Source of the DNA: a virus
Taxonomy: Duplodnaviria; Caudoviricetes
IMG/VR virus record: IMGVR_UViG_3300024319_000502
Location: 2,042-66,041 of that record
Strand: one strand, 5' to 3'
DNA: 64,000 nucleotides
The notes under the pieces were generated by a model. The model was not told the origin of the DNA. It saw nothing but the letters and a program-made list of their open reading frames with translations, and did not search any database. Below are positions 21,889-56,903 of the stretch, piece after piece (positions within the stretch are counted from its first letter, which is position 1; each line of letters opens with the position of its first letter). The position numbers and the translations under genes were made by a program.

Positions 21889-22906
21889 TGAAGCAGAACT
21901 AGTACATTGGATGCAAAACAAGGACACTATGTCTTTGTTGCCTGCACAGGTTGACATTGACCTTACTAATGTCTGTAATCAAGACTGTTATTATTGTAAC
22001 TCAGTAGATTTTCGCAAGGACGAGCCTGTACAAAAGAAATATCACAAATACATTGAGCTGTTAGATAAGTTAGCAACCTGGAGAGCTCATACACCAAAAA
22101 GTTACGGAACAACACACACAATAACATACCCAGGTGGTGGCGAGCCAACTATACTAACAGGCTTTGAAAAGGTAATAGAACATACTGTAGATCAAGGCTT
22201 TCTTGGATCCATTACTACAAACGGTAGCTACTTAGACAAACTGTTTGATATGCCTGTAGAAAAACTTAAGAAATTAGCTTGGATAGGTATAGACATTGAT
22301 GCTGGCACTGAAGACTTGTATGAAAAGATAAGACGTAGTTTAGTTAAAGAGAATCTATTTGAACGTATGCAGTCTAATGCTCGAGAGTTAATTAAGAGAG
22401 GGGCTAACGTAGACTTTAAAGTATTACTATGTCCAGACAATGACACACCAGAAGCACTTGAAAACATATTCACATTTGTTAAAGGTCTAGGAGGTCGTAA
22501 AATATTCTTCCGTCCTGTTATTGTTAACGATAAGGCACATGACATTACATATCAAACACAGTCAACTATAGAACAATTAGGTCGCAAGTATAGCCAACCT
22601 TTTTGGATTAACAATAATAAAACACTGCCACGCAACTATAAACGCTGTCATCAAATGTATCACTTTCCTGTATTCTGTGCAAATGGTAAAATATATGTAT
22701 GCTGTGAAGGTAAGGGTAATCCACAGTTTGAACTAGGACAATGGGATGAAGGTGACTTTAGAGATATATGGATGAGTGAACGTCATCACGATATATACAA
22801 TAAAACAAACACTGGCCTATGTCAACCTTGTAGACCAAATAAGACTAATATTAATATACAGAACATGATAGATACACCACAACAGATAGAAGGATTATAT
22901 AAGTGA
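21878..22906 (+). CDS. Radical SAM enzyme with SPASM/twitch domain
   Basis: CNQDCYYC, GGGEP, TNG; C-terminal C...VCC...CQPC. Confidence 0.9.
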   Translation: MNYNEAELVHWMQNKDTMSLLPAQVDIDLTNVCNQDCYYCNSVDFRKDEPVQKKYHKYIELLDKLATWRAHTPKSYGTTHTITYPGGGEPTILTGFEKVIEHTVDQGFLGSITTNGSYLDKLFDMPVEKLKKLAWIGIDIDAGTEDLYEKIRRSLVKENLFERMQSNARELIKRGANVDFKVLLCPDNDTPEALENIFTFVKGLGGRKIFFRPVIVNDKAHDITYQTQSTIEQLGRKYSQPFWINNNKTLPRNYKRCHQMYHFPVFCANGKIYVCCEGKGNPQFELGQWDEGDFRDIWMSERHHDIYNKTNTGLCQPCRPNKTNINIQNMIDTPQQIEGLYK

Positions 22907-23943: not shown

Positions 23944-24684
23944 ATGTCAATAGAAAATCACATTGATTGGAATGAAAAGCAAGACCCAGAAAAAGCATCA
24001 GTCAGTAAAGAAGTAAAACGTAGACTTGAAGCAAATGGAATACGTTATTGGGCTAATGATAACATCAGTGAAGTGCTGTTACCAGGTGACAAAGAAGCAC
24101 TTATCGAAGAAGCAGTTCCTGCTTTTGAAGAAGTATTACAAAAACTTTTAATAGATACAAAAACAGATCCAAATTCAATGGATACTGCAAGACGTATGGC
24201 TAAGATGTATATCAATGAGATAATGGCTGGACGTTATGAAGCAATGCCTAATCCTAGTGCGTTTCCAAACTATGTTGGCGAAGGTGGTTACGAAGGTATG
24301 TTGGTTGTACGTAGTGAGCTAACAAGTTTGTGTTCTCATCATCATCAGACAGTAAAAGGTGTAGCATACATTGGTATCATTGCAGGACCTAAACTATTAG
24401 GTTTAAGTAAGTACACTCGTATCGCTCAGTGGTGTGCTACAAGAGGTACACTACAAGAAGAACTTAATGTTATGATTGCTGATGCAATTCAAAAAGAAAC
24501 AGGTAGTGAACACGTTGGTGTGTATGTACAAGCAACACACGGGTGTTGTGAAAATAGAGGTATTAAAGCACATTCAAGTCTAACACAAACTACAGTATTA
24601 CGTGGTGCGTTTAGAAATGATCCAGCTACTAAGAAAGAGTTCATAGACAATGTTAAACTACAACAAGAGTTTGCCCAAAAGTAG
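23944..24684 (+). CDS. folE: GTP cyclohydrolase I
   Basis: TARRMAKMY, SLCSHH, GLSKYTRI, LQEE, HGCCENRG. Confidence 0.95.
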   Translation: MSIENHIDWNEKQDPEKASVSKEVKRRLEANGIRYWANDNISEVLLPGDKEALIEEAVPAFEEVLQKLLIDTKTDPNSMDTARRMAKMYINEIMAGRYEAMPNPSAFPNYVGEGGYEGMLVVRSELTSLCSHHHQTVKGVAYIGIIAGPKLLGLSKYTRIAQWCATRGTLQEELNVMIADAIQKETGSEHVGVYVQATHGCCENRGIKAHSSLTQTTVLRGAFRNDPATKKEFIDNVKLQQEFAQK

Positions 24685-24685
24685 G

Positions 24686-24714
24686 TTGACCAAAAAATCC
24701 GAATTTAGTATAAT
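24686..24714 (+). promoter_or_regulatory. Strong sigma70-type (early) promoter, TTGACC class
   Basis: TTGACC-aaaaaatccgaatttag-TATAAT (17 nt spacer). Confidence 0.8.
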
Positions 24715-24745: not shown

Positions 24746-27685
24746 ATGTTGTTCTTAAGATCGATCTTAGTTGTAGTTATGTTGTTTGTGTCAACCTCTG
24801 TATATGCAGGTCGATGGACGGTATTAGATACCTGGTCAACTACAGACACTCCATATGTACATACTAGTGACGCAACCTACGAATATGTCGTTGATTCTGT
24901 TACAGATTCTTACATAGATACGGACGGAAATACTATTGAACGTATATCAAACGTAAGATATCGAGTCGAAACAAGAACCATAACTACTTCCATTACACAT
25001 AGAGACAGAGTACGTGAACAAAATGCTATGGGTAGAGTACGAGAGCGTGGACTAGACGTATACGCTACAGTAACTACTGAAACAGATGTTCAACGCAATC
25101 ATATGGGAACTTCTGTAGTATCTGAAACTATTACTGCTGTTTCTCCTAGTGTAGAAGAAGCACGTCTAGCAGAAGAGGCTCGTTTAGCAGAAGAAGCCAG
25201 ACTTGCTGAAGTTGCAAGATTAGAAGAAGTAGCAAGGTTAGAAGCATTAGAAGTTGCTAGGTTAGCTGAAGAAGCTCGACTCGCTGAAATTGCAAGATTA
25301 GAAGCACTTGAGGCAGAAAGGCTAGCAGAAGAAGCACGCCTTGCAGAGGTAGCCAGATTAGCAGAAGAAGCACGCCTTGCGGAAGAGGCTCGTTTAGCTG
25401 AAGAGGCTAGACTGTTAGCCATTGCTGAGGAAGAAGCAAGGTTAGCCGAGGTAGCTAGATTAGAAGCATTAGCAGAAGAAGAAAGGCTAGCAGAAGAAGC
25501 CAGGTTGTTAGCTATTGCAGAAGAAGAAGCTAGAGTTGCTGAAGAAGAAAGATTGGCCGCATTAGCAGAGGAAGAAAGATTAGCTGAAGAGGCACGTTTA
25601 TTAGCGGTAGCTGAAGAAGAAGCCAGGTTAGCTGAGGAGGCACGTTTAGCAGAAGAAGCCAGACTTGCTGAAGAGTCCGAAACAGTTGCAACATTAGACT
25701 TTGGTGCTAATAGTATATACTTAGGTACTCCAACTGAAATGCCTAGTTCGGATCCAACATACTATCAAGGACTTGATAACTTTAAAAACTTTAACTCAGC
25801 CGTAGGACAAGACTGGGCATTGTCAAGAGGATGGACAGGTAAAGGATCTACAATTGGTATATTAGATAGTGGTATTGATCTTGATCATCCAGAGCTTGCA
25901 GGTAAAGTTACATTTCAATGGGAACCAGGTTATGACAATGGCATTGAAGACTCAGTAGGTCATGGTAGTCATGTAGCATCAATTGCGGCAGGTAACATGG
26001 GTGGCGAAGTGTTAGGTATAGCACCTGATGCTAATCTAGCTATTGTTAAAATTACTGATTCATGGTCAGCTTCAATGAGCTTTGCTCGTCAGGGTATTGT
26101 GCAACTTAAAAACAATACTGACGCAGTAGTAGCTAACTTATCAGCAAACACTAGTTATCATAACTCATATAAAAGCACAGTAACAGATAGAGGCAATGGT
26201 GTGTTTACCAGCAACCATGAATACTATGGTGGAACTAATTATTATAATATGGAAACACCAGATGCTTGGGGCAGTGCTATGTCAGGTAGTGAAATAGTAT
26301 TAACTATATCAGCAGGTAATCAATCAAATGGTTATGTACAAAATCCTGCGACATTTGCGGTAGCAACAGACAGTTCAGGTAACTTGGTTATGGACGGTCG
26401 TGCTATTGTAGTAGGTGCTTGGAATACTGCTACCGAAACTATTGATGGTGCTAAGTCAGGGCACATGTGTAAAAACTACAGTGGCAGTGAATGTTTAGAC
26501 ACTTATAGAACTTCAGACTTTTATATATTGGCACCAGGTAATAATATAGTAGGTGCTGATAAAGACGGCGGTTATAGATCAATGTCGGGTACATCACAAG
26601 CGGCTCCTGTGGTTGCTGGTGCAGTAGCAGTTATACATCAAATGTGGCCATACATGAAAGGCGAGAACATTGTTCAAGTGTTGTTAGATACTGCTGATAA
26701 AACTATAACAGGATACAATGTTAATACACACGGACAAGGACTGTTAGATCTTAAACGTGCTACAGAACCAATTGGTGATTTAGGTATATCAATGACAGGT
26801 AGAACAGGAACTACTACTCCTCTATCGGGTGGTATTGCAGTTGCTGGTATTAGTTCTGTTACAGAGTTGTCAAGCGTTAAAGTAGTAGATGAAATAGGTC
26901 GTGACTATACAGTTGATTTAAGTTCTGCAACTATTGATCTTAAAGGTAGCACTAATAATTTAATTCCAGTATATCAATTAGATCACTCAGTAGGCAGTGC
27001 ATGGTCAAGTAAATTTGTTGGAGGAGAAGGTGCAAACTATCGAGGTTGGTATCTTAACAGTTACGAACAAGAAGTAGGCAACATAAATCAAGAAACATTT
27101 AGTGCAATGTCATTTGGATTTGATAGTTCAGCACTAGCTGTAAGAGATATATACACTGGAGAAATTAAGGATCCAAGTGACTGGACAGAAAGATTTACTT
27201 ACACAAGAAGTTACGGTTCACCTTTTATGAGCTTTAGTGGTATGTGGGGACAAGTTAACTCAACAGACACATTTGAGTATTCAACAATGTATAAGCCAAA
27301 CAATTGGTATGGACAAGTAGGTGTTATGTATTCTATAACAGACTTTGATAGCGGACTAGTTGAGGACGTTGATAACATTACATCAATGTATGGTGTTGCT
27401 GGTTGGGCTAACGATAATGTAAACTTATATGTAGGTGTTAAGCCTACTGTGATCGATGGTGAGTTAGATTTAAGAGTACCCACATCAGTTAGTAGTACAG
27501 GAGTTATGTCGTATACTAATGCTAAAGCAGATATGACAGGTGACCCAGTAACGTATGTAGGTGCACAATATAACTTAACTAATTCAGAAGATCAATTTGG
27601 TAATGTACATAACTTAAGAGTTAACGGTGCAGTTGATCAATATGGTGACGCACTAGTTGGTGCATTTTATGAGTTTACATTCTAA
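24746..27685 (+). CDS. Secreted S8 subtilase with EEARLA repeat stalk and probable C-terminal beta-barrel
   Basis: Signal peptide; triad ILDSG, GHGSHVA, SGTSQAAP; beta-rich C-terminus ending FYEFTF. Confidence 0.85.
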   Translation: MLFLRSILVVVMLFVSTSVYAGRWTVLDTWSTTDTPYVHTSDATYEYVVDSVTDSYIDTDGNTIERISNVRYRVETRTITTSITHRDRVREQNAMGRVRERGLDVYATVTTETDVQRNHMGTSVVSETITAVSPSVEEARLAEEARLAEEARLAEVARLEEVARLEALEVARLAEEARLAEIARLEALEAERLAEEARLAEVARLAEEARLAEEARLAEEARLLAIAEEEARLAEVARLEALAEEERLAEEARLLAIAEEEARVAEEERLAALAEEERLAEEARLLAVAEEEARLAEEARLAEEARLAEESETVATLDFGANSIYLGTPTEMPSSDPTYYQGLDNFKNFNSAVGQDWALSRGWTGKGSTIGILDSGIDLDHPELAGKVTFQWEPGYDNGIEDSVGHGSHVASIAAGNMGGEVLGIAPDANLAIVKITDSWSASMSFARQGIVQLKNNTDAVVANLSANTSYHNSYKSTVTDRGNGVFTSNHEYYGGTNYYNMETPDAWGSAMSGSEIVLTISAGNQSNGYVQNPATFAVATDSSGNLVMDGRAIVVGAWNTATETIDGAKSGHMCKNYSGSECLDTYRTSDFYILAPGNNIVGADKDGGYRSMSGTSQAAPVVAGAVAVIHQMWPYMKGENIVQVLLDTADKTITGYNVNTHGQGLLDLKRATEPIGDLGISMTGRTGTTTPLSGGIAVAGISSVTELSSVKVVDEIGRDYTVDLSSATIDLKGSTNNLIPVYQLDHSVGSAWSSKFVGGEGANYRGWYLNSYEQEVGNINQETFSAMSFGFDSSALAVRDIYTGEIKDPSDWTERFTYTRSYGSPFMSFSGMWGQVNSTDTFEYSTMYKPNNWYGQVGVMYSITDFDSGLVEDVDNITSMYGVAGWANDNVNLYVGVKPTVIDGELDLRVPTSVSSTGVMSYTNAKADMTGDPVTYVGAQYNLTNSEDQFGNVHNLRVNGAVDQYGDALVGAFYEFTF
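25150..25675 (+). repeat. Degenerate coding tandem repeat (EEARLA / EVARLE units)
   Basis: Long run of roughly 6-residue units with varied synonymous codons. Confidence 0.9.
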
Positions 27686-37684: not shown

Positions 37685-38344
37685 ATGAAACAATTCACCT
37701 CTTGGAATCCGGACTGGCGCTATACTAAATTCAACATAGATTGTCTGAAGGAAATTCAACAAGAATTTTTAAATGTTCGTAAACTAATTTGGCATAAACA
37801 TAGTGATCAAAACTTAGAGGATCCAGATCCATCCTGGTGGGACTTTTCAATGATGCCAAGACAAGAACTTGAGCCGTTGGTTCCTACATTAGCTAATTGG
37901 TTTAAAAGTAAAGGTATATTAGATAAGTGGTCATCAACAGCTTTTGCTGTAGTTAATAAATCTAGTAATCCAATGGATATTCATGTAGACAGCACTGTTA
38001 TTGATGTTAGAAGATATAGTTTAAATATGCCTTTTATAAACTGCGACAATACCTGGACTGTATGGTACGATGCAGATGTAGATCAAACACGACTGCCAAC
38101 TGACATACCTCCTGAAGTATTACACTCGAGATTTAAATATGATCCAACGTTGAGATTTGGGCTATGGTATCAAGAACAAACTGCAACAGAAATAGATCGT
38201 GCTGAAATGGATTCGCCAGTAATAATAAACATCACTGTGCCACATAGACCCGTTAGTGGACACGAAGATACACGTATTTTACTATGTCATAGATTTACTC
38301 CTGAACTTACAACCGAAGAGGTATTAACTATATGCAACCAATAA
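37685..38344 (+). CDS. Cupin / 2OG-Fe(II) oxygenase-like protein
   Basis: IHVD, SLNMP, VPHRP...R motifs. Confidence 0.6.
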   Translation: MKQFTSWNPDWRYTKFNIDCLKEIQQEFLNVRKLIWHKHSDQNLEDPDPSWWDFSMMPRQELEPLVPTLANWFKSKGILDKWSSTAFAVVNKSSNPMDIHVDSTVIDVRRYSLNMPFINCDNTWTVWYDADVDQTRLPTDIPPEVLHSRFKYDPTLRFGLWYQEQTATEIDRAEMDSPVIINITVPHRPVSGHEDTRILLCHRFTPELTTEEVLTICNQ

Positions 38345-39537
38345 GTATCACTGGACTAGGTATTGTCAACAGCTTAGGCGTTGGTGTTGAACAAACGTGG
38401 CAAAAGATGCTAAACAACGAAACAGGAATCAAACCTATAAGTTGGGCAGACAAAGATGATAAAGACTTTTACTTTCGAGAGTATCTTAGTAAATGTCCTG
38501 TTCCTATAGGTGCACCATTAACTGAATTACCTGAATGTCCTATCTCAGAATTTAGTAAAGACTGGAGACACTTAGATCCAAGTATTCGTATTGCACTACA
38601 TGCAACATGGCAAGCAGTCAATGACTCTAAACTTACTAGTAAACGTGTGGCAGTTATATACGGTTCAATAGGGTCAAGTCATACACGCTCTGAAGGTAAC
38701 AATGCAATGTATAAAGGTCGGGTAAAATTTCCCCCACGCAAAACCTTAAACTTTGAACTAGGACACATGACTGCTATCATAAGTCGTGTATTTGGTTTTG
38801 AAGGACCCAGTCTTATGGTACACAATGCTTGTTCAACAGGATTAACAGCAATTGACTACGCACAACGTATGCTCGAAACTGATCCAGAACTAGATGCAGT
38901 TGTTGTCGGTGGAGGTGATTTGCCTCTAGAAGCTACATCAGCATTTTATTTTAGTAACTTGCAAGCGTTAACGTCAACAGAATGTAAACCATTTGATCAA
39001 CAACGAAGTGGTTTTGTATTAGGCGAAGGTAGTGGAGCAATGGTACTAGAACGTAAAAGTGATAAACAGTCATACAGTGACGTTCTAGCTGTAGGTGCTG
39101 TTACTGTAGGCGAACATGAAACTTCACCCGATCATGCAGGCAAGGCCGCAACTCAAGCAGTACTCAAAGCTGTTAACAGTGCCAGTGCTAATCTAGATGA
39201 CATTGGTTATATTAATGCACATGCTACTGGAACAGAAGTAGGAGATATTATTGAATATACAGCTATGCACTCAATACTACCTGGCAGAACTATGACGGCC
39301 AACAAAGGTCAAATTGGACATACTATATGTTCAAGTGGTATTATTGAAACTGCATATACTGCTCTGGCTCTTAGAGATCAAGTTACTCCTCCTATACACG
39401 GACTAACTAATCCTGTTGGTCTAGACATGATTTTACCTCAAGAATTACACTATCCTATATCTACGCAACTAGCCATCAAAAATAACTATGCTTTTGGTGG
39501 TAGATCAATGAGCGTATTATTATCTAAATCTGCTTGA
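38332..39537 (+). CDS. fabF: Beta-ketoacyl-ACP synthase (FabF/FabB-type)
   Basis: ITGLGIV, NACSTG (Cys), PFD..RSGFVLGEG, NAHATGT (His), GHT (His), AFGG. Confidence 0.88.
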   Translation: MQPISITGLGIVNSLGVGVEQTWQKMLNNETGIKPISWADKDDKDFYFREYLSKCPVPIGAPLTELPECPISEFSKDWRHLDPSIRIALHATWQAVNDSKLTSKRVAVIYGSIGSSHTRSEGNNAMYKGRVKFPPRKTLNFELGHMTAIISRVFGFEGPSLMVHNACSTGLTAIDYAQRMLETDPELDAVVVGGGDLPLEATSAFYFSNLQALTSTECKPFDQQRSGFVLGEGSGAMVLERKSDKQSYSDVLAVGAVTVGEHETSPDHAGKAATQAVLKAVNSASANLDDIGYINAHATGTEVGDIIEYTAMHSILPGRTMTANKGQIGHTICSSGIIETAYTALALRDQVTPPIHGLTNPVGLDMILPQELHYPISTQLAIKNNYAFGGRSMSVLLSKSA

Positions 39538-39562
39538 CTTTTAAATAACCTGGTGTTATACT
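39534..39562 (+). promoter_or_regulatory. Sigma70-type promoter with an embedded TAAATA
   Basis: TTGACT-17-TATACT. Confidence 0.65.
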
Positions 39563-39589
39563 AGCGTTATCATTTAAATGGAGATCGCA

Positions 39590-39916
39590 ATGAGTAGAGC
39601 ATTTATCGTAACCGAAGCAATGAAAGAAAAAATTCCTAATATATATGAATTAAATTTAGTAGCCGCGGCAAGAGCACACGCTATTGAAAGAGGAAGTACT
39701 CCTAGAATCACCGAAGAAGAATGTGGTGAACATAAACCAACTGTGATTGCACTCAAAGAAATAGAAGCTGGGTTGATTGATTTAGAATACTATCATAACC
39801 AAAAAGCTATTGAACAAAGATGGAAAGCTGAAAGAGAGCAAGACGGGAAGGAAGAGGTTGAGCAAGATGACCAAAATTTTTTTCCAAGATCAAGCAAGGA
39901 TATGATACAAGAATAA
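39590..39916 (+). CDS. rpoZ: RNA polymerase omega subunit homolog
   Basis: KIPNIYELNLVAAARA...KPTVIALKEIEAGLI parallels the omega pattern KIGNRFDLVLVAARRA...KTTVIALREIEEGLI. Confidence 0.85.
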   Translation: MSRAFIVTEAMKEKIPNIYELNLVAAARAHAIERGSTPRITEEECGEHKPTVIALKEIEAGLIDLEYYHNQKAIEQRWKAEREQDGKEEVEQDDQNFFPRSSKDMIQE

Positions 39917-39926
39917 TTTAATAAAT

Positions 39927-40034
39927 ATGAGTTCACTATTACTAAAAGCGATTGTGTATGGAACAACGGCCTGGGCATTATATTTGTTAGCCTGGGTAGT
40001 AAACAATCCTTGGTTACAAGAAATTATTTTTTAA
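39927..40034 (+). CDS. Tiny membrane peptide (35 aa)
   Basis: MSSLLLKAIVYGTTAWALYLLAWVVNNPWLQEIIF fills the gap; no clear SD. Confidence 0.45.
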   Translation: MSSLLLKAIVYGTTAWALYLLAWVVNNPWLQEIIF

Positions 40035-40043
40035 GGATAAAAA

Positions 40044-40307
40044 ATGTTAGATAATGATGACGACTTTCAATGGAGTAATGAGTCTGAAGAAGATATGGGA
40101 CAACTTCATGCTATTCACAATAACATGAATCATATTGCTGAAGTTAATCGTAAATTACAAGAACAAGCAAAAAGACCCAGTGCAACAGAGTGTGAAGAGT
40201 GCGGTGATACCATTCCTGAAGCTAGACGTCTAGCAGTTAAAGGTGTACAATTATGTGCTCCTTGTCAAGAGGCATTAGAACAAGTAAAAAGAGTCTATGG
40301 TTCGTAA
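40044..40307 (+). CDS. DksA/TraR (YbiI-like) C4 zinc-finger protein
   Basis: CEECGDTIPEARRLAVKGVQLCAPCQ. Confidence 0.9.
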   Translation: MLDNDDDFQWSNESEEDMGQLHAIHNNMNHIAEVNRKLQEQAKRPSATECEECGDTIPEARRLAVKGVQLCAPCQEALEQVKRVYGS

Positions 40308-40593
40308 TTGTCCCCTATTAGGTAGGGTAGCACAATTTGTCGCTAAAGACTGGCGCAGTCATCCTGTGAGGTTTGTAATTGAAGTTATAGCATGGGCGTT
40401 GAGTATATCAGCTTCAGTTATCATGGCGTTAACTGTACCTAATCCTCCACTGTTACTCATATACATATTTTGGGTGATTGGCTGTTCACTTTATTCTTGG
40501 GCCGCAATCACTAGAGGAAGTTTTGGAATGCTCGCTAACTATTTGCTACTCACAGCAATTGATACGTACGGTTTAATTCAGCTTATTGGTTGA
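40297..40593 (+). CDS. Small three-TM membrane protein, paralog of 9196..9477
   Basis: Hydrophobic; shared RS.P..F..E motif and P....Y..W/F..G. Confidence 0.65.
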   Translation: MVRNCPLLGRVAQFVAKDWRSHPVRFVIEVIAWALSISASVIMALTVPNPPLLLIYIFWVIGCSLYSWAAITRGSFGMLANYLLLTAIDTYGLIQLIG

Positions 40594-40618
40594 CCATAAA
40601 ATCCATTTTTGCTATAAT
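40590..40618 (+). promoter_or_regulatory. Strong sigma70-type (early) promoter, TTGACC class
   Basis: TTGACC-ataaaatccatttttgc-TATAAT. Confidence 0.8.
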
Positions 40619-41308: not shown

Positions 41309-41639
41309 ATTATGGGCTTATGCAGTCATTGGTGCACTTACTTTGATAAGTGCATATTGTGATTATCAGCACTGGCTCAATCCGTTAGACCTCAAACTAG
41401 AACACGATCCAAAACAACACGACGGCAGTCAAGAGTTTCAAAGACCTATAGATTTTGAAAGTACAATACAACCTGCACCCGATGAAGATGGAACTACTAG
41501 ATACTTAGGACCTAATGAACTCGAAGCACTTGACGGATTGACTACAGATGGTAATGTTATATCCCCCAAAGATCAAGAAGTATTTAACGAACTTAAAAAT
41601 AAACCTGAATATCCACACGAAATACCGGTTGACCAATAA
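41262..41639 (+). CDS. Hypothetical single-TM protein
   Basis: LWAYAVIGALTLISAY TM segment. Confidence 0.6.
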   Translation: MKLKKKITNKQYLQYKLWAYAVIGALTLISAYCDYQHWLNPLDLKLEHDPKQHDGSQEFQRPIDFESTIQPAPDEDGTTRYLGPNELEALDGLTTDGNVISPKDQEVFNELKNKPEYPHEIPVDQ

Positions 41640-41657
41640 ATCACAATTTAGTATAAT
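41629..41657 (+). promoter_or_regulatory. Strong sigma70-type (early) promoter, TTGACC class
   Basis: TTGACC-aataaatcacaatttag-TATAAT. Confidence 0.8.
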
Positions 41658-41692: not shown

Positions 41693-42790
41693 ATGTCAGA
41701 CGTAAGAACAATAACATCAGAAGAAGCAAGAAACAGTTTATTAAAATGCTTTAACAAACAACGCCCAATATTTTTATGGGGGCCTCCAGGGATTGGTAAA
41801 TCAGAACTAGTTGCATCTGTTGCTGAGGAACTAGATGGACTAATGTATGATCTACGTTTAGGTCAAATGGATCCAACAGATATCAGAGGTATTCCTTTTT
41901 ATAATAAAGATAACGGCACAATGGATTGGGCACCTCCAATTGATTTACCTGATGTTGACACTGCAAGTAAGTATCCAGTGGTTGTATTATTTTTAGATGA
42001 AATGAACTCAGCGGCTCCTGCTGTACAGGCCGCGGCATATCAACTAATATTAAACAGACGTGTTGGTAAGTATCAACTTCCAGACAACGTTGTTATGGTA
42101 GCCGCAGGTAACAGAGAATCAGATAAAGGTGTTACTTATAGAATGCCTACTCCGCTAGCAAACAGATTTATTCATCAAGAAATGAGAGTAGACTTTGATT
42201 CATGGGAACACTGGGCAGTTAAAAATAAAGTGCATAAAGATGTAGTTGGTTACCTTGCATCAAGTAAACAAGACTTATATGACTTTGATCCAAAAGGTGC
42301 TAGTCGTTCATTTGCTACACCTCGTTCATGGACATTTGTTAGTGACTTGTTAGAAGATGATACTACTGATAAGCCAACATTAACTAACTTAATTGCTGGT
42401 GCAATTGGCGAAGGACTTGCTGTTAAATTTATGGCACATAGAAAAGTTGCTAGTGAAATGCCTAACCCAACAGACATCTTAGAAGGCAAAGAAAAAGATC
42501 TTAAGGTTAAAGATATATCAGCTATGTATGCCTTAGTTGTTTCGATGTGTTATGAGCTTAAAGAGCGTCAAGATAAAGATACTGCAGAAGCAGAGTTTAA
42601 TAGATATGTTGACAACTTCTTTGAGTATATGATGAAAAACTTTGAGACTGAAATTACCGTTATGGGTGCTCGTACTGCTCTTACTACATATGATTTAAAA
42701 TTTAGTCCAACTAAACTTAAATCGTTTGATAAGTTTCATGAGAAGTATGGTAAGTATATTCTTAAAGGCTCAGTTGGACATGAGCGATAG
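41693..42790 (+). CDS. MoxR-type AAA+ ATPase
   Basis: GPPGIGKS, LFLDEMN, AAGNR, PLANRF, TPRSW. Confidence 0.9.
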   Translation: MSDVRTITSEEARNSLLKCFNKQRPIFLWGPPGIGKSELVASVAEELDGLMYDLRLGQMDPTDIRGIPFYNKDNGTMDWAPPIDLPDVDTASKYPVVVLFLDEMNSAAPAVQAAAYQLILNRRVGKYQLPDNVVMVAAGNRESDKGVTYRMPTPLANRFIHQEMRVDFDSWEHWAVKNKVHKDVVGYLASSKQDLYDFDPKGASRSFATPRSWTFVSDLLEDDTTDKPTLTNLIAGAIGEGLAVKFMAHRKVASEMPNPTDILEGKEKDLKVKDISAMYALVVSMCYELKERQDKDTAEAEFNRYVDNFFEYMMKNFETEITVMGARTALTTYDLKFSPTKLKSFDKFHEKYGKYILKGSVGHER

Positions 42791-46534: not shown

Positions 46535-46610
46535 GCTGGCATAGCTCAGTTGGTAGAGCAACGCACTTGTAATGCGTAGGTCCTCAGTTCGAATCCGAGT
46601 GCCAGCACCA
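46535..46610 (+). tRNA. tRNA-Thr(UGU)
   Basis: 76 nt cloverleaf: acceptor GCTGGCA/TGCCAGC, anticodon arm ACGCA-CTTGTAA-TGCGT, TTCGAAT loop, encoded CCA. Confidence 0.95.
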
Positions 46611-47356: not shown

Positions 47357-47673
47357 TGGGAGAATTTTTAAGTGAATATTGGTTAGTAATAATACTTGGA
47401 TTTTTATTCCTGGTTGTAGCCTACAATAATCTTAAAAATTATGTTGGAGCAGTCGTGTTGCTTACTCCTTTAATTGCATTATTTTTCTATGCTGTACTTG
47501 ATTTTACTGTAGTGGGTTCATTGATTGCTGGACTTATTTGTTCAATATTCTGTAACAGTGCTAGTGGTAGTAGTTCTAGCAATATTAGACTAGAATCAAC
47601 TGATTGGTTTAGTTATAAAATTGGCAATATCAAAAAGAACTTTACTGATTATAAGTTTACTAAGAAAAAATAG
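47356..47673 (+). CDS. Small membrane protein
   Basis: Three hydrophobic segments. Confidence 0.65.
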   Translation: MGEFLSEYWLVIILGFLFLVVAYNNLKNYVGAVVLLTPLIALFFYAVLDFTVVGSLIAGLICSIFCNSASGSSSSNIRLESTDWFSYKIGNIKKNFTDYKFTKKK

Positions 47674-47674
47674 C

Positions 47675-47703
47675 TTGACCATAAATTCGTAATTCGCTAT
47701 AAT
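47675..47703 (+). promoter_or_regulatory. Strong sigma70-type (early) promoter, TTGACC class
   Basis: TTGACC-ataaattcgtaattcgc-TATAAT. Confidence 0.8.
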
Positions 47704-47727: not shown

Positions 47728-49032
47728 ATGGCAACTACTACAACATCAAACACAAAAGATTTAGAAGACAAGTTCAAAGACATACTAGGTCCTACAGATA
47801 AAGCTGTTGACAGAGAAGCAAGAGAACGTCTAATTACTGCTCGAGTAGGTCTACTACTTAAACAACCATTCTTTGGTAACCTAGCAACAAGACTAACACT
47901 TACTAATGCAGACGAATGGTGTCCTACAGCCGCAACAGACGGTCGTAAATTTTACTATAATTCACGCTTTATCATGATGTTAGAAGATGAAAACGAGTGT
48001 GAATTCTTGTTTGGTCATGAAGTTCTTCATGCTGTCTATGAGCATATTGGTAGACGTGTTGACAACGAACACGAAGCTCAACTTTCAAATATTGCCGCTG
48101 ACTATTGTGTTAATGGCGATCTAGTTCAACAAAAGGTAGGTCGTATGATTACTACTGTTCCTTGTTTACATGAAACAAAATACTATGGTTGGTCATATGA
48201 ACAAGTGTACAAAGATCTATATGATAATGCTGAAAAGATTGATATCAGCAGTCTAGTAGATCAAATGTTAGATGAACATTTAGACAACGAACAATCAACT
48301 AATGAATCAGAAGGTAATGGTCAAGGTTCAGATGAAAAAGAATCTAAAAGCAAACGTCCTACACTAAGTGAACAAGACCTTAAAGAAATTAAAGATGAGA
48401 TGAAAGAAGCTCTTGTTAATGCGGCCAAACAAACTAGTAATGCAGGACAGTTACCTAGTGGTGTTAAACGTATACTTTCAGATATCACAGAACCTAAAAT
48501 GAATTGGCGTGACCTACTTCGTCAACAGTTAGAGTCAACTATTAAAAGTGACTTTACGTTTGCTCGTCCTAGTCGTAGAGGTTGGCATATGGATGCTATA
48601 CTTCCGGGTATGAAAAACGATCAAATGATTGATATTGCACTTGCTATTGATAGTTCAGGTTCAATGGATGATAAAATGTTAACAGACATCAAGAGTGAAG
48701 TTAAAGGTATCACAGAAGAATTTTCAAACTTTAAAATACATATGTTTAGCTTTGATACAGCCGTACACAATCCAGAAGAATATACTAGTGATAACTTAGA
48801 TGACATCACAGAGTATGAAATACAAGGTGGTGGCGGTACTGATTTTGGTTGTATGTTTGATTACCTTAAGAAAGAAATGATTGAACCAAAAAGACTAGTA
48901 GTATTTACAGATGGTTATCCATGGGATACCTGGGGTGATCCTAACTACTGCGAAACTGTTTGGATCATACATTCAAACGATAATCCTACTCCGCCCTTTG
49001 GTACTTGGGCAAAATACGAAGAAGAACAATAA
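47728..49032 (+). CDS. Metallopeptidase-like plus VWA domain protein (DUF2201-type MoxR partner)
   Basis: TAATDG, HEVLH, DSSGS MIDAS, GGGGTDF, FTDGY. Confidence 0.88.
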   Translation: MATTTTSNTKDLEDKFKDILGPTDKAVDREARERLITARVGLLLKQPFFGNLATRLTLTNADEWCPTAATDGRKFYYNSRFIMMLEDENECEFLFGHEVLHAVYEHIGRRVDNEHEAQLSNIAADYCVNGDLVQQKVGRMITTVPCLHETKYYGWSYEQVYKDLYDNAEKIDISSLVDQMLDEHLDNEQSTNESEGNGQGSDEKESKSKRPTLSEQDLKEIKDEMKEALVNAAKQTSNAGQLPSGVKRILSDITEPKMNWRDLLRQQLESTIKSDFTFARPSRRGWHMDAILPGMKNDQMIDIALAIDSSGSMDDKMLTDIKSEVKGITEEFSNFKIHMFSFDTAVHNPEEYTSDNLDDITEYEIQGGGGTDFGCMFDYLKKEMIEPKRLVVFTDGYPWDTWGDPNYCETVWIIHSNDNPTPPFGTWAKYEEEQ

Positions 49033-51962: not shown

Positions 51963-52916
51963 TTGAACATACTAGTTAGTGGTGGATTAGGTTTCATAGG
52001 ACACGAAGTTGTCCGTTTGCTAGGTGATCATAATGTTATAGTCATTGACAGCATGACTAACTATGACTTTATTCCTCTAGATCAAATGATGAAACTGTTT
52101 CAACTACGTCAAGGTGACTTACGTAATCAGGTTCCTAACAAGCGTGTTGATATAAGAGACAAGGCACAGGTCGACTCTGTGTTTGAAAACTTTAAGCCAG
52201 ACGTAGTCATACACCTAGCTAGTTACCCAAGACAGAAAGTAGTGTTAGAAAATCCTGGGGTAGCTTCAGAAGTTATGTCAACAGGACTAATCAACTTATT
52301 AGAAGCTAGTAAGAAAACAGTTTCAAAATTTGTTTATGTATCGAGCTCAATGGTATATGGAGACTTCGACGATCATGTTGAAGAAACACAACCATGTGAT
52401 CCTCGTGGGCAGTATGCTATAATGAAGTATATGGGAGAGAAGTTAGTTGAAGATTACAGTAAACACTTTGACTATACTATCATACGTCCAAGTGCAGTAT
52501 ATGGTCCTAGAGATGTTGAAGATAGAGTATTAAGTAAATTTGTGTTAGGTGCTCTTAACAATGATACACTAAAAGTAAGAGGCGTTGATGAGATACTAGA
52601 CTTTACATATGTCACTGACACAGCACAAGGTATTGCACTTGCATCAACTAAAGACTGCAAGTATGCGATATACAACATTACTAGATGTGAGGACACACCT
52701 GTTACCTTAGCCCAGGCGGCTACTACTGTAGTAAAACTTACCGGACAAGGTAGTTGGTTAGAATATGCAAAGGATCCAAACTTTCCAAGTAGAGGTAGAC
52801 TAAGTATTGATAGAGCTAGATCAGATCTAGGATATAATCCCCAAGTAGATTTTGAACAAGGCTGTCAACAATATATTAATTGGATGAAGGCCAATGATTC
52901 CATTTATAAATCTTAA
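51963..52916 (+). CDS. NDP-sugar epimerase/dehydratase
   Basis: GGLGFIG, HLAS, SSSMVYG, YAIMK, VYGP, DFTYV. Confidence 0.92.
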   Translation: MNILVSGGLGFIGHEVVRLLGDHNVIVIDSMTNYDFIPLDQMMKLFQLRQGDLRNQVPNKRVDIRDKAQVDSVFENFKPDVVIHLASYPRQKVVLENPGVASEVMSTGLINLLEASKKTVSKFVYVSSSMVYGDFDDHVEETQPCDPRGQYAIMKYMGEKLVEDYSKHFDYTIIRPSAVYGPRDVEDRVLSKFVLGALNNDTLKVRGVDEILDFTYVTDTAQGIALASTKDCKYAIYNITRCEDTPVTLAQAATTVVKLTGQGSWLEYAKDPNFPSRGRLSIDRARSDLGYNPQVDFEQGCQQYINWMKANDSIYKS

Positions 52917-54015
52917 ACTACAATACAACAACATTCGTAAAGAAATACTAGATGCTACCGACGAAGTACTGTCTAGTGGTGTTCTCATGAATGGACCCAA
53001 TACAGAGTTACTAGAGTTTCAACTGGCTAGACGTATGGAAGTTCCTCATGTTGTTTGTGTGGGATCAGGTACAGAAGCATTAGAAATAATAGCTAGATTC
53101 CACAAAGAAAGTTTTTACGGTGTCACTAAAACAAAGCCACGTGTAATTGTTCCTGCATTAACTTATCCTGCTACTATTAATGCTTTCATTAGTACTGGGT
53201 GGGACGTTATTATAGGAGAAGTCAACGCTGAAACAGGAATATTAGATTTAGAAAAAATAACAATAGACGACTTTGATGCTGTTTGTATAGTTGGATTATA
53301 CGGGCAACCTGTGTTTGCTGATTGGTACCTGCGTAGGAAAGAAGGACACAATAAACTAGATGGAAAAATAATTATTGAAGATGCCGCTCAACATTGGCTT
53401 GCCAGTGACTATAGTGGTGCTCCTATAATGAAAGCTATATCATTTGACCCTACTAAGAACTTACCTAACTATGGTAGTGGTGGTGCTATTGCATGTTGGG
53501 ACGAGTATGCAATGAATTGGTTTAGGATGTATAGAGACAACGGTAAGCCACATAAAAATAGTTACGGTACTAACTCACGCATCTCAGAAGTAGATGCCGC
53601 ACAGATGTTAGTTAAATTAAAATATCTAGATGGTTGGCAAGAACGTAGATTAGCTATTGCTGAATACTATTGTGAACGTTTTGAACAAGAAGCACCGCAT
53701 GTCAGAGTGCTTATGAGTAAGATGATAAACAAAGCAATGCACGGATTACAGAAGTTTGTTATTGAAATAGATCATAGAGACCGTGTTAAAGATTTATTAC
53801 TGACAGATGGTATTGAATGTAAAGTACACTATGAACAACCGTTACATGAAATGGAACCTTATGGTAACTTTCCAGGTCCAAATATTATTAGTGCGGCCAG
53901 TGCGTTAGCAAGACGTGTGTTAAGTTTACCTTTCTATCCTGAACTAACTGACAAAGAAATAAAACTAATTGCCGATCGTGTTATTCATCATGTAGAGAGT
54001 GATACCTCTCAGTAA
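52894..54015 (+). CDS. DegT/DnrJ/EryC1 sugar aminotransferase
   Basis: SGTEAL, EDAAQ, SFDPTKNL, GTNSR, LSLP. Confidence 0.92.
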   Translation: MIPFINLKLQYNNIRKEILDATDEVLSSGVLMNGPNTELLEFQLARRMEVPHVVCVGSGTEALEIIARFHKESFYGVTKTKPRVIVPALTYPATINAFISTGWDVIIGEVNAETGILDLEKITIDDFDAVCIVGLYGQPVFADWYLRRKEGHNKLDGKIIIEDAAQHWLASDYSGAPIMKAISFDPTKNLPNYGSGGAIACWDEYAMNWFRMYRDNGKPHKNSYGTNSRISEVDAAQMLVKLKYLDGWQERRLAIAEYYCERFEQEAPHVRVLMSKMINKAMHGLQKFVIEIDHRDRVKDLLLTDGIECKVHYEQPLHEMEPYGNFPGPNIISAASALARRVLSLPFYPELTDKEIKLIADRVIHHVESDTSQ

Positions 54016-55777
54016 GCCACTGCCAATCGTAACTAAGTTTTAGTAGATCAAAGTCACCGTTGACTTCTTCGTAGTAATCAACAGCATCCTTAGAACCCAT
54101 CATTGACCATTTACCTTTAGTACCTTGACCTTTATTCAACCAAGCACGTAATCTATATTCAGTTTCTACATCACTGTCTTGAGATAGACTGTGTTTAAGT
54201 TTTACAACTTCACGGAATGCTGAACGCCACGCCATGAATTCATCATCAGCATAGTTAGCTTGACCTGATAATATAGGAACTACTTCGTGTTGTTGATCAA
54301 GTGTAAAGTCTAATCCAGGTGCAGTGTTTTCTAACACTAGTTTTTTGTTGTATGCTATCATGGCCATGTGTCCGTACTCTAATCCATTTATAGGATTACG
54401 TGCATGAAATATATAATGTTTTGGTTGCTGTAGACAGTCTGGTTGCCATGCCCAATCAAAGTTGTCATCAACTTTTAACTTGGCAAACACAGCAAAAAAC
54501 CACGGGGTACTACTGACCTTAGCCGCGGCCTGATAAGCGGCTACACGACCCTTAACGTTGCTTACACGGTGTATTGTGTTAGTGTTTACTGTGTTAGTTA
54601 AGTGTTGAAAGTTTTCTTCTCTATTAACTTCACCGTTATCAATGAACACTATGTCCAATGGTTTGTCCCGAACAGTCTGATGTGTTTTATCTATAAATTC
54701 ATAATCCCATAACTGTTCTTTAACTTCTACTATAGCCTGTCTTGGTACTATAACTGTTGTACCTCTCGTAGTTAACGGTGTAACTGTTTTAGTTTTTGCT
54801 CTCCATAATGGCACTGCTGGAAGACTACCTTGATAATCATCATTCTGAAAAACTATCAATGGATCTACTAACTTACATTGTTTAACTTGTTCAACATGAC
54901 TGTCCTCTGTGTGTCTAATCCAAGGTATAGGTAATCTAGGAACTGATATGTTAAGAAAGTTTAAATCATACCAATCTAATAATTCAACACTGTCTATACG
55001 TTGTTTAAAACTTGGTACGTGCATAAAGAATGTGTCTCCAAACTTCTCTCCGTCTGATTGAAAAACATGTAACATTCCTTGTTGCCAAGTTTCAGGATGC
55101 CAAGTAAAATCAAAGTCTGTATAGTCACATAAGCTACTTAGGATCCAAACAAACTCTACGTCATCTGGCAATGAATTAGATACTCTTTTTAAAGTGTCTA
55201 AGTAATTGTCAAAATATCTACTCTTTTTAATAACATCTATGTCAGGTGTTACTGTGTTTTCATTGTTATGATTAATTATAACAGCTTGATCCGCAACTTT
55301 GGTACCTCGAGCATGTACCTGTGTTACATATTTTACATCTCGTGCATCTGGAACATGATAAACTGGGCCTCCAGTCTTTTGATGCTGTGTGCCAAACTGA
55401 TATTGATACGGAGGATCTGTTGGATCAGGATGCCAACTAGTGTCAAAGTCGTTAACAGTGTCAGGTATTTCCCAACTGTCTAGGGTTGGTAATCTTGTTA
55501 TTGTTGTATCATTATGATAGTTAGTTTCTTGATAATCTTGTTTAGGAACTAGATACGTCCCGCTATCTTTTTGCCACTGACTAGGCCAAGCATGTCGCTG
55601 ATGTTTTTCCCAAGGTGCAGGTTCCCAAAAGAAGTCCCACCCTGTGTAATCACTATAAGTATTTACAATCCAGCAGTAACGAGTACGTGACTGTTGCTGT
55701 GCATGTTCAATGGAACTTGCCTCTTTTTCAAAAGGAACAACGTTTGGTTTTTTACCTATATAAAATATATCAAACAT
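53981..55777 (-). CDS. Multi-domain glycosyltransferase-like protein
   Basis: Repeated modules (FDxxWxP three times); C-terminal DIVFI...GRVAAYQAAA...AWRSAFREVVKL; start MFDIFYIG. Confidence 0.5.
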   Translation of the reverse strand: MFDIFYIGKKPNVVPFEKEASSIEHAQQQSRTRYCWIVNTYSDYTGWDFFWEPAPWEKHQRHAWPSQWQKDSGTYLVPKQDYQETNYHNDTTITRLPTLDSWEIPDTVNDFDTSWHPDPTDPPYQYQFGTQHQKTGGPVYHVPDARDVKYVTQVHARGTKVADQAVIINHNNENTVTPDIDVIKKSRYFDNYLDTLKRVSNSLPDDVEFVWILSSLCDYTDFDFTWHPETWQQGMLHVFQSDGEKFGDTFFMHVPSFKQRIDSVELLDWYDLNFLNISVPRLPIPWIRHTEDSHVEQVKQCKLVDPLIVFQNDDYQGSLPAVPLWRAKTKTVTPLTTRGTTVIVPRQAIVEVKEQLWDYEFIDKTHQTVRDKPLDIVFIDNGEVNREENFQHLTNTVNTNTIHRVSNVKGRVAAYQAAAKVSSTPWFFAVFAKLKVDDNFDWAWQPDCLQQPKHYIFHARNPINGLEYGHMAMIAYNKKLVLENTAPGLDFTLDQQHEVVPILSGQANYADDEFMAWRSAFREVVKLKHSLSQDSDVETEYRLRAWLNKGQGTKGKWSMMGSKDAVDYYEEVNGDFDLLKLSYDWQWLTERYHSLHDE

Positions 55778-55784
55778 ATTAACT

Positions 55785-56903
55785 ATGATTAGAATTGATG
55801 AAATATATGATAACACATTTTGGCCGTATATTGCAAAGAATATACCCGATACAGCAATGTTTTATCATGACCCATTTGGCTGTAGTGATCCAGACAGTGT
55901 CTACGTTACTCCTAAGTCAAACGCTGAACGACTACAAAATTATATATACCTTTTTGACCAGGAGCCTGTAACTTTTGAAAGGCAAAAGCCAACTTGGGAC
56001 AGTGTAAGAGAAAGAAGTAATTTTGATACTATAAACGAGCAACGTTGTGTATTAATAACCAGTGAAAAGAATAGTGAAGAAGTAGAACGAGTTACAGACT
56101 ATCTTATTGGCAAAAGCTTCTATTATTTCTTTCATGGATGGGCGGCATTAGATTGGTATCGAGGTTATGACCGTACATTTCTTATTACTCCCCCTCGAGA
56201 TAGAACAATAACAAAGACATTTATATCACCTAATCGTATAGTAGGTGGCGAACGCTTACATCGTGTTGCTATGCTATACCATTTTGAGAAACTTGGTTTG
56301 TTTGATAATCATATATCTGCTCCACTAATATGTCCAGTTGAAAATGAACACATAGCTAAAATATCTAGACAATTAAGAAATCAATATCCTGACATAGAAC
56401 AAACATTTACTAATTCAACTAACTTTCCTAAACTGTTTAAAGGGGAACAAACTCAGCAGATGCACAGTTGTTGGCTTAGTCTGTTTGATGAAAGTGCAGA
56501 AAGTTTGTTATACCATGTTTCGGAAACTGTTTGCTTTGGTAGGAAAAATCATCTGACTGAAAAAACATTTAAACCAATAGCAATGGGTATGCCTTTTGTA
56601 ATTACAGGTACTCAGGGCTCGCTGGCATACTTGCGTGAATATGGATTTAAAACATTCGGTGACATATGGGACGAAAGTTATGATCTTGAACAAGATGACT
56701 TTAAGCGTTTAGAAAAGATAGCGATGCTGTTAAAAGAACTTGACAGTAAAACTGAAAGCGAAAAACAAAAAATATTTGAGCAGTGCATACCTATAATAGA
56801 ACATAACTGGAATCATTTTTATCGCGGTGAGTTTGCTGACGTACTATGGAAAGAGCTTATGTCAATGATGGAGGATATTCGTGATCACCTTAGCGATAGA
56901 TAA
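55785..56903 (+). CDS. Putative glycosyltransferase-like protein (EKxxKP family)
   Basis: TEKTFKPIAMGMPF...GFKTFGDIWDESYD. Confidence 0.55.
   Translation: MIRIDEIYDNTFWPYIAKNIPDTAMFYHDPFGCSDPDSVYVTPKSNAERLQNYIYLFDQEPVTFERQKPTWDSVRERSNFDTINEQRCVLITSEKNSEEVERVTDYLIGKSFYYFFHGWAALDWYRGYDRTFLITPPRDRTITKTFISPNRIVGGERLHRVAMLYHFEKLGLFDNHISAPLICPVENEHIAKISRQLRNQYPDIEQTFTNSTNFPKLFKGEQTQQMHSCWLSLFDESAESLLYHVSETVCFGRKNHLTEKTFKPIAMGMPFVITGTQGSLAYLREYGFKTFGDIWDESYDLEQDDFKRLEKIAMLLKELDSKTESEKQKIFEQCIPIIEHNWNHFYRGEFADVLWKELMSMMEDIRDHLSDR

Follow-up and report, generated by a model that had tools for sequence, protein, structure and literature searches.

An RNA polymerase omega homolog encoded next to a TraR-like zinc-finger protein in an uncultured virus record

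The nucleotide ppGpp (guanosine tetraphosphate) acts on the RNA polymerase (RNAP) of Escherichia coli at two sites about 60 Å apart, site 1 at the omega subunit and site 2 at the rim of the secondary channel (review, PMC9304144). At site 1, most contacts to the 5'-diphosphate of ppGpp are attributed to Ala2 and Arg3 of omega and to Arg417 of beta' (PMC13192712, a 2026 preprint), and MAR is described as a conserved omega motif for (p)ppGpp binding (PMC6416229, 2019, citing Hauryliuk 2015). Bacterial rpoZ, the gene for omega, is linked to spoT, the gene of a ppGpp enzyme (PMC6416229), as we also saw in the E. coli ligB-gmk-rpoZ-spoT-trmH region. TraR mimics DksA together with ppGpp and acts without ppGpp, and its phage homologs bind RNAP (PMC9239242). 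Factors of this type bind in the secondary channel and shut down rRNA and ribosomal-protein promoters, freeing RNAP for the mobile element; their use of the lineage-specific insertions betaSi1 and beta'Si3 explains why they are found chiefly in Proteobacteria (PMC9239242). Here we analyzed 64 kb (the window) of a 66,041-b IMG/VR virus record, in which an rpoZ homolog is followed on the same strand by a gene for a TraR-like protein. A reading made earlier from the letters of this DNA (the sequence-only reading) had tied the two proteins to the two ppGpp sites, a connection that is reasonable in light of PMC13192712 and PMC9239242. We propose, and give an even chance to, an early host-takeover module acting on host RNAP, in which the phage omega and the TraR-like protein would uncouple the enzyme from ppGpp.

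The omega gene (39590..39916, + strand) encodes 108 aa counted from an MSR start, with core helices in residues 9-85 followed by an acidic, aromatic-containing, disordered tail. The MSR start is preceded by GGAG 6 nt upstream, and an alternative ATG at 39578 is not conserved in the relative L050. The protein matched the Pfam family RNA_pol_Rpb6 (PF01192) with an E value of 1.1e-14 (54.6 bits; cut-off 26) and the NCBIfam rpoZ equivalog TIGR00690 with 46.2 bits (cut-off 23.6), which together with its fold bears out the earlier identification of an rpoZ homolog. A phmmer search of the PDB matched 20 distinct omega sequences (best 9gdo_E, E = 2.5e-8). The AlphaFold2 (AF2) model had a predicted local distance difference test (pLDDT) score of 76.8, with helices within residues 9-85 and disorder predicted from about residue 87, and its 50 best Foldseek matches in the PDB were all RNAP omega chains (50/50; TMt 0.60-0.82, probability 0.99-1.00). 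Identity over the core was 37-44% to gammaproteobacterial omegas and 47-49% to two betaproteobacterial ones. Bacterial omega matches were present in 253 of 401 genomes in a phylum-wide search, with at most about 50% identity to the phage omega; one of the genomes in this tally (G391) is unpublished, and none of our conclusions depends on it. A scan of genome contigs confirmed at least two betaproteobacterial omegas among the matches listed, and a search of the Atlas with the phage omega returned generic omega clusters only, with scores of 0.90 or below. We propose that the protein would join RNAP physically through beta'.

We compared 32 phage omegas (the window protein, 27 clusters from a metagenomic protein collection and four variants from viral contigs) with 11 proteobacterial omegas, the latter being the best-scoring bacterial matches of our searches and not a random sample. 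The core is largely retained: among 22 columns conserved in at least 10 of the 11 bacterial sequences, 14 are kept in at least 26 of the 32 phage sequences and two more show conservative changes. At the N-terminus, all 11 bacterial omegas begin M-A-R-[VI]-T. Every phage omega (32/32) has an N-terminal extension of 2-7 residues, and the equivalent of Ala2 is never N-terminal; the column equivalent to Arg3 holds Tyr in 21, Phe in seven, Ile in two and His in two, with Arg in none of the 32, and Thr5 of the bacterial omegas is likewise found in none. By this alignment, the MAR motif of the phage omegas is rebuilt, not retained. The sequence-only reading had described MSR in place of MAR. The window protein does start with MSR, as do 3 of the 32 phage omegas in all, but this start lies two residues out of register with MAR, and a near-MAR motif is not conserved across the family. 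Two other changes lie in the core. The bacterial sequence RARQ has become RAH-A/D, with the His in 31 of 32 phage omegas, and the residue before the conserved Lys of the K-P-T-V motif is His in all 32 and D, N or E in the 11 bacterial sequences. It is shared substitutions, and these only, that suggest a common ancestry of the phage omegas.

The charged C-terminal extension remarked on in the sequence-only reading proved to be real and conserved. In a long-tailed clade, the acidic tail (...EVEKEDDSFFPRSSNEVI) is almost perfectly conserved and ends in a nearly invariant FFPRSS motif; the omega of viral contig L025 has a similar DFWP motif, and the motif is absent from the short-tailed omegas of L002, L003 and L026, whose linkage to TraR persists. 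A sliding-clamp or PIP-like (PCNA-interacting peptide) interpretation of the FFP motif was dropped; the spacing does not fit the consensus, and no clamp gene was identified in the window. The tail does suggest another explanation, in which omega is an adaptor or chaperone unrelated to ppGpp: it would stabilize or assemble host RNAP or mark a phage-owned pool of the enzyme, the tail would recruit a phage factor or bias the choice of sigma, and TraR would act separately. A conserved tail that is predicted to be disordered and resembles a short linear binding motif is what such a protein might carry, and there are precedents in that the gene transfer agent (GTA) activator GafA binds omega, using it as a docking site (PMC9638019), and in that loss of omega alters sigma usage in E. 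coli and cyanobacteria (PMC3147163, PMC3985657). Omega is also the fastest-diverging gene of its block, with 38-51% identity between relatives vs 57-78% for TraR and 75-85% for the flanking genes, which fits an interface under adaptation. An adaptor role would leave unexplained both the rebuilt N-terminus, common to all 32 proteins, and the constant ppGpp-mimicking neighbor, and the three omegas lacking the tail motif keep that neighbor all the same. We consider this explanation unlikely, and continue with the uncoupling of RNAP from ppGpp as the preferred one.

The second gene (40044..40307, + strand) encodes a TraR-type C4 zinc-finger protein of 87 aa and has AGGA 6 nt upstream of its ATG. 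The protein matched Pfam zf-dskA_traR (PF01258) with 43.3 bits (cut-off 24.9) and the PHROGs family phrog_54, 'DksA-like zinc-finger protein', with an E value of 5e-16. Its best PDB sequence matches were E. coli YbiI (2kgo, 1.6e-8) and F-plasmid TraR (6n57_M, 2.9e-6), in keeping with its earlier description as a YbiI/TraR-like zinc finger. In the AF2 model, a disordered acidic N-terminus (residues 1-12) is followed by helices at 13-43, 59-64 and 72-85, the last being C-terminal, and by a Zn ribbon formed by C50, C53, C71 and C74. The model thus combines a single long N-terminal helix with a Zn globule and a C-terminal helix and lacks the DksA-type coiled coil, and the best structural matches were RNAP-bound TraR (6n57_M and 5w1s_M, TMt 0.74-0.75); DksA reached a TMt of only about 0.3. 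Eight residues were invariant in 22 members of the family: the four Cys, E15, Q20, L21 and R61. The EARR of the window protein aligns with EARR of TraR, which includes R48 and R49, residues that contact the rim helices and beta'Si3 (PMC9239242); R61 is invariant and the next position is mostly R, with Q in five of the 22. The tip of the window protein reads E13-S14-E-E-D17-M-G19, so the acidic SEEDMG recorded earlier is found at residues 14-19, and the family consensus at the tip is [S/E/A]-E-x-[D/E]-x-[G/A] (22 sequences). The 12 extra N-terminal residues have a conserved DD-aromatic-x-aromatic-x-N-E pattern and are without counterpart in TraR. The metagenomic protein collection contained 98 clusters of the TraR-like protein, on contigs of up to 334,676 b.

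The two genes are linked well beyond the window. A scan of IMG/VR with the TraR-like protein gave 19 contigs, and an alignment-based omega scan added L025 and L026; a scan of viral contigs with the single omega protein had given no matches where the alignment-based scan detected them. All five omega-bearing viral contigs (the window, L002, L003, L025 and L026) have omega and then TraR on the same strand. In L002 and L003 omega is directly upstream of TraR, and in L002 its stop overlaps the TraR start by 8 nt. A metagenome scan yielded 46 omega loci, whose open reading frames (ORFs) were searched with hidden Markov models (HMMs) built from our alignments. A TraR domain lay downstream on the same strand in 37 of the 46, and with the viral contigs this extends to other phages the adjacency that the sequence-only reading had found in one. 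The offset from the end of the omega ORF to the start of the TraR domain in these 37 loci was -28 to +11 nt in 22, 47 nt in two, 138-180 nt in five (the window arrangement, with its peptide gene) and 609-816 nt in eight, which have one or two extra genes. Six further loci (L053, L054, L058, L060, L082 and L071) end before the place that TraR occupies in close relatives, and three (L080, L087 and L088) carry other omega types, with no TraR in 0.7-2.5 kb of downstream sequence. The L080 omega (560-829) starts with MAR and lies among short ORFs at 40% GC, with no TraR nearby; the L087 protein (2333-2740) is omega-like with a long N-terminal extension, at 44% GC, also with no TraR nearby. Grouped at 95% identity, the 46 loci represent 27 omega clusters, with linkage in 23, only truncated loci in two and other types in two. 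Some metagenome loci are probably IMG/VR contigs (for example L090 and L026, both 9,464 b), and the two sets are not independent. No omega of the window type with enough flanking sequence is without TraR, and the pairing is far beyond chance.

The converse does not hold. Omega was present within 4 kb in only two of the 19 contigs found through TraR, and 17 of the 19 had TraR without omega. A 158-kb relative (G003) has TraR and ClpP and no omega, and in the cultured Vibrio phage 2.275.O no omega gene adjoins the TraR-like gene. Because TraR mostly occurs without omega and omega always with TraR, omega looks like an add-on to a TraR-based system. The block that carries the pair is syntenic, with a 5'-3' exonuclease gene and small genes to the left and a MoxR-type ATPase gene to the right, at about 80% identity. 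Within it, the linkage has outlasted several local changes. Upstream of the pair, the window carries an insertion of 2.6 kb that holds an ORF on the reverse strand, another of 236 aa and a ketoacyl synthase gene. In addition, a 98-aa gene has been inverted, the gene downstream of the pair has been exchanged (it may be ClpP or the 98-aa gene), and one or two genes have entered between omega and TraR.

Such close linkage might also mean that omega and TraR bind each other directly, whether or not they are on RNAP, and work as a single factor. Many relatives have the two genes overlapping or translationally coupled, as is often seen with stoichiometric partners. We regard a complex as highly improbable, given that site 1 and site 2 of the E. 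coli enzyme lie so far apart (PMC9304144), that one or two genes separate the pair in 13 of the 37 loci and that TraR is commonly found without omega. A predicted complex of the two proteins gave an ipSAE of 0.00 in two runs that were made without controls, which speaks neither for nor against binding. The preferred reading, uncoupling from ppGpp, has the two proteins acting on the same enzyme at separate sites.

Phage-encoded omegas appear to be rare. A tblastn search of 50,697 phage records with the window omega gave six matches. All six show one and the same 43.8% alignment, over residues 1-64, and two of them are in Salmonella whole-genome records with an omega annotation. A third, in GenBank MG065691.1 at 116731-121916 (L047, 'UNVERIFIED: Campylobacter phage A11a'), is bacterial DNA, with 5,186 b that match the E. 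coli ligB-gmk-rpoZ-spoT-trmH region at 100% identity; MG065686.1 (A18a) has the same omega match as the A11a record. With three of the six matches inspected or annotated as bacterial, no real phage omega was recognized in the 50,697 records. No PHROGs family matched omega significantly (best E value 0.037), and PF01192 was found in none of four cultured relatives. The 27 omega clusters of the metagenomic protein collection, by comparison, have 66-91% identity and are all 105-112 aa long. No report of a phage-encoded omega was found in the literature searched, and the main text of the jumbo-phage comparative papers searched is without omega, DksA or TraR, although their supplements might list such genes. 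A phage-borne omega homolog tied genetically to TraR appears to be undescribed; the TraR-like protein is a divergent representative of a strategy already known from phages.

The window is part of the genome of an uncultured marine jumbo phage related to Atu_ph07 and GAP32-like myoviruses. The IMG/VR record has a CheckV completeness of 19%, which implies a genome of about 350 kb. Its family-B DNA polymerase shares 43-48% identity with the enzymes of cultured myoviruses of 350-490 kb (Atu_ph07, Phosso, Vibrio phage 2.275.O and the GAP32/CBB group), and the description of this DNA as phage, made before its origin was disclosed, agrees with the record and with the polymerase. GC content is even along the window (34-39%, uniformly about 36%), and most ORFs in the first 53 kb are on the + strand. 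Almost the whole window (0.96-0.98 of sampled words) was present in 14 seawater DNA runs with 14 study codes, six of which may themselves be its source, and it was partly present in six seawater metatranscriptome runs that possibly belong to one campaign.

These observations bear on the idea that omega is a passenger, that is, a captured host rpoZ without a takeover function or host DNA misjoined to a viral contig. Omega is a small cellular gene, and the omega match that we checked in the public phage collection was indeed bacterial DNA. The window omega, however, sits inside a phage gene order of uniform 36% GC on a single strand, is at most about 50% identical to any bacterial omega found and recurs in 27 protein clusters and 46 metagenome loci, with a conserved core and the family-specific RAH for RAR in 31 of 32 proteins; the stretch also recurs in the DNA and RNA runs just described. 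A passenger is very unlikely in our estimate. Least probable of all, to the point of being barely credible, is that omega is a subunit of a multisubunit RNAP encoded by the phage itself. Some jumbo phages, of the PhiKZ-like group, do encode such an enzyme (PMC9123017), and the records studied here are only 3-45% complete. There was, however, no Pfam beta or beta' match in the window record and four related viral records (G000, G001, G002, G003 and G006; about 265 kb in total, all fragments). Moreover, the closest cultured relatives by DNA polymerase are T4-related, not PhiKZ-like, the omega is most like beta- and gammaproteobacterial omegas, and its partner TraR is a factor of the cellular RNAP. 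We return to host RNAP as the target of the proposed module.

Promoter-like sequences flank the pair. A near-consensus sigma70-type site, TTGACT-17 nt-TATACT with TG before the -10 (10/12 + TG), lies at 39534..39562 (+) in the 52 nt that separate the ketoacyl synthase gene from omega. A second, TTGACC-17-TATAAT, at 40590..40618 (+), likely marks the end of the omega-TraR unit. Five copies of the pattern TTGACY-N17-TATAMT are present in the window, always on the + strand, vs 0.16 occurrences expected, and none of 100 shuffles reached five; by ORF coordinates, every one is found in a gap shortly before a gene begins. Four of the five, the second site among them, form a family of near-consensus repeats, D4 (GGTTGACCAwAAAATCC...TATAAT, +), at 24684-24714, 40588-40618, 41627-41657 and 47673-47703, whose copies precede the genes for a subtilase, a 45-aa ORF, the MoxR ATPase and a von Willebrand factor A (VWA) protein, respectively. 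The D4 repeat is probably an early-promoter class of the phage, which would be read by unmodified host RNAP. Contigs of four seawater metatranscriptome runs (four study codes, maybe one campaign) cover the omega-TraR pair at 99-100% identity. An 824-nt contig (39627-40450) spans omega, the peptide gene, TraR and the 98-aa gene, and a 723-nt contig (39893-40615) also bridges genes. In both X15 and X16 the upstream contigs break off at 39534/39535, and a contig of X15 begins at 39562; these ends are a weak hint of a transcript boundary. Loose contig ends at 40586 and 40637 fit the repeated element. Runs X21-X23 (share 0.00) and window stretches without RNA-contig cover were not used as evidence. 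The RNA contigs are compatible with expression of the pair and are no proof of it.

How the proposed module would work can be outlined as follows. Early in infection, and from a sigma70-type promoter, both proteins would be made and would dock on the core of host RNAP. The host is probably proteobacterial, as suggested by the distribution of TraR homologs and by the beta- and gammaproteobacterial affinity of the omega. The N-terminal helix of the TraR-like protein would enter the secondary channel as a ppGpp-independent stand-in for DksA and ppGpp where site 2 forms. Omega and DksA can both dissociate from RNAP (PMC9304144), so the phage omega, whose core is intact, could take the place of omega on beta' when expressed at a high level. 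Because its N-terminus has no free Ala2 or Arg3, RNAP carrying the phage omega would respond differently to ppGpp at site 1. Loss of the ppGpp response would be the most likely outcome; alternatively, the extension and its aromatic residue would fill the pocket. Transcription in the infected cell, uncoupled at both sites, would then obey the phage and not the (p)ppGpp level of the host. A parallel for the ppGpp reading, which we regard as suggestive, comes from gene order: the gmk-rpoZ-spoT context is absent from the phage, where the order is ketoacyl synthase, omega, peptide gene and TraR, and the spoT neighbor of bacterial rpoZ is replaced by a ppGpp-mimicking factor. Beyond a homolog with an altered N-terminus that is linked to TraR, we infer each step, namely RNAP binding, exchange of the host omega and the direction of the ppGpp effect.

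A more elaborate version of this scheme is tentative and, to us, rather improbable. The phage omega would replace the host omega, its rebuilt N-terminus would block site 1 or fill it as a built-in ppGpp mimic, and TraR would do the same at site 2, yielding a 'stringent-like' polymerase that is encoded wholly in protein and independent of the nucleotide. If true, this omega replacement would make the phage the first virus seen to exchange a core subunit of its host's RNAP, and would offer a natural means of separating site 1 from site 2.

Several observations weigh against the broader proposal of uncoupling. The tip of the TraR-like protein is non-canonical: it keeps the charge pattern and spacing of DxxDxA and not its letters, and TraR homologs with an incomplete DxxDxA motif are less active in vitro (PMC9239242). 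The protein also scores below the curated NCBIfam cut-offs for TraR and YbiI (TIGR02419, 47.2 vs 59.7 bits; NF008243, 54.5 vs 96; NF010268, 34.4 vs 108), and is therefore a divergent member of the DksA/TraR superfamily with TraR architecture. In 17 of the 32 phage omegas, including the window protein with its MSRA, there is an Arg or Lys among the three positions that precede the Ala2-equivalent column; as this segment is modeled as coil with modest confidence, a shifted phosphate contact to ppGpp is possible. The effects of site 1 on initiation in E. coli are only about 2-fold (PMC9304144), and the benefit of altering site 1 may accordingly be small. All contigs that bear the pair belong to one syntenic phage group, so the conserved order may partly reflect shared ancestry and not functional coupling. 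The viral records are fragments, and a phage RNAP may lie elsewhere in the genome. Finally, contigs from RNA libraries may contain DNA, and they show neither transcript ends nor levels.

The pair is part of a group of four tightly packed + strand ORFs within 39534-40593, which encode omega, a 35-aa peptide, the TraR-like protein and a 98-aa protein. The hydrophobic 35-aa peptide (39927..40034, +; no Pfam or PHROG match) is the one tiny ORF that the sequence-only reading had placed between omega and TraR. It recurs at the same position in L049, L057 and L059 with the motif GW.[IV]NNPWL, and the recurrence of this NNPWL motif makes it probable that the ORF is a real gene. Where omega and TraR overlap (L002, L003, L025 and L026), the ORF is missing. 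The 98-aa protein (40297..40593, +) is a predicted multi-pass membrane protein without a family match. Its gene overlaps the TraR stop by 11 nt and is probably the last gene of the omega-TraR unit. It is translationally coupled to TraR in the window and in L026. Its counterparts in L002, L003 and L026 show 75-82% identity; the gene lies downstream of TraR in L026 and inverted, upstream of omega, in L002 and L003, and it does not accompany the pair everywhere. In many relatives a gene for a ClpP-family protease comes directly after TraR (L051 3813-4370, L057 3833-4402, L025 3090-3662 and L004 4252-4872; PF00574, 102.7 bits for the L051 copy), and in the window the 98-aa membrane gene occupies this place.

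In one subclade, an acidic protein of 216-241 aa (MAT[IV]EQKQEIVDTLK...) is encoded between omega and TraR, at 2817-3542 in L051, 2817-3467 in L055, 2823-3479 in L057, 2817-3467 in L062 and 2686-3336 in L071. It starts 1 nt past the omega stop codon in L051, L055, L057 and L062; in L071, two other genes precede it. The two copies of the acidic protein that were compared with Pfam (L051 and L057) had no match, and neither did the 195-241 aa proteins encoded between omega and TraR in some relatives. The 216-241 aa insert could be a third component of the omega-TraR module. Directly upstream of omega, the window has a FabF-like beta-ketoacyl-acyl carrier protein (ACP) synthase gene (38332-39537, +; PF00109 and PF02801; TIGR03150 fabF 218.6 bits, with a cut-off of 493.75); such a metabolic gene is unusual among phages. 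A ketoacyl synthase gene is also found upstream of omega in L049, L051 and L055, and a radical S-adenosylmethionine (SAM) protein is encoded there in L057 and L062.

Other features of the window lie farther from the pair. The MoxR-type AAA ATPase gene (41693-42790, +) is the sole part of the window in which similarity to cultured jumbo phages (PA5oct-like phages and Bacillus phage G) extends to the nucleotide level. A gene for a DUF2201 metallopeptidase/VWA protein is at 47728-49032 (+), and between these two lies a tRNA-Thr gene (46535-46610). A 979-aa protein with a subtilase domain (PF00082) is encoded at 24746-27685 (+); in its N-terminal part, a periodic repeat of 18 nt occurs about 10 times (25135-25700) and was read as encoding Glu/Ala/Arg/Leu-rich units. 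A sugar or small-molecule modification cluster on both strands at 51963-63945 includes an NAD-dependent epimerase/dehydratase, a DegT aminotransferase, a carbamoyltransferase and two radical-SAM proteins, and a third radical-SAM/SPASM protein is encoded at 21878-22906. At the left end of the window, almost nothing in PHROGs matched ten large ORFs.

It is already known that phages redirect host RNAP with accessory proteins and sigma-like factors, and phage factors of the TraR type have been characterized. If the phage omega does enter host RNAP, then omega would be exchangeable in vivo and exploited as a regulatory switch, and the phage protein would be a natural variant with which to dissect ppGpp site 1, the role of which is still debated. 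It would also suggest how giant phages keep transcribing in nutrient-starved marine hosts with high ppGpp.

The closest known relative of the first protein is bacterial omega (RpoZ; PF01192, TIGR00690), for example in the RNAP structures of E. coli and Vibrio cholerae. The phage omega shares its family and fold and keeps the bacterial core motifs N..L..A.RA and K.TV.AL.EI.AG. Unlike bacterial RpoZ, it is encoded by a phage and adjoins TraR, whereas E. coli rpoZ has gmk and spoT as neighbors. The second protein shares with F-plasmid TraR and lambda Orf73 (PMC9239242; PDB 6n57, 5w1s) a small size, four Cys, the EARR motif, a long N-terminal helix, a Zn ribbon and a C-terminal helix, and like lambda Orf73 it is phage-encoded. 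It differs from both in its tip, [S/E]ExD/ExG, and in its 12 extra acidic and aromatic N-terminal residues. It is also linked to an omega gene, and no such linkage is described for TraR homologs in the part of PMC9239242 drawn on here.

Other phages, such as T4 and T7, remodel host RNAP with unrelated accessory proteins. The aim of those factors and of GafA is the same as that proposed for the phage pair, namely to redirect host RNAP to the program of a mobile element, and with GafA omega is already in use as a regulatory surface. They are unrelated accessory binders of RNAP, whereas the phage described here carries a homolog of a core subunit itself. In E. coli, DksA and ppGpp act at site 2 and omega and beta' form site 1 (PMC9304144, PMC13192712), and the two phage proteins are counterparts of the protein partners of both sites. 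Unlike the E. coli DksA/ppGpp system, the phage pair implies no nucleotide cofactor and would replace or bypass the partners that the host provides.

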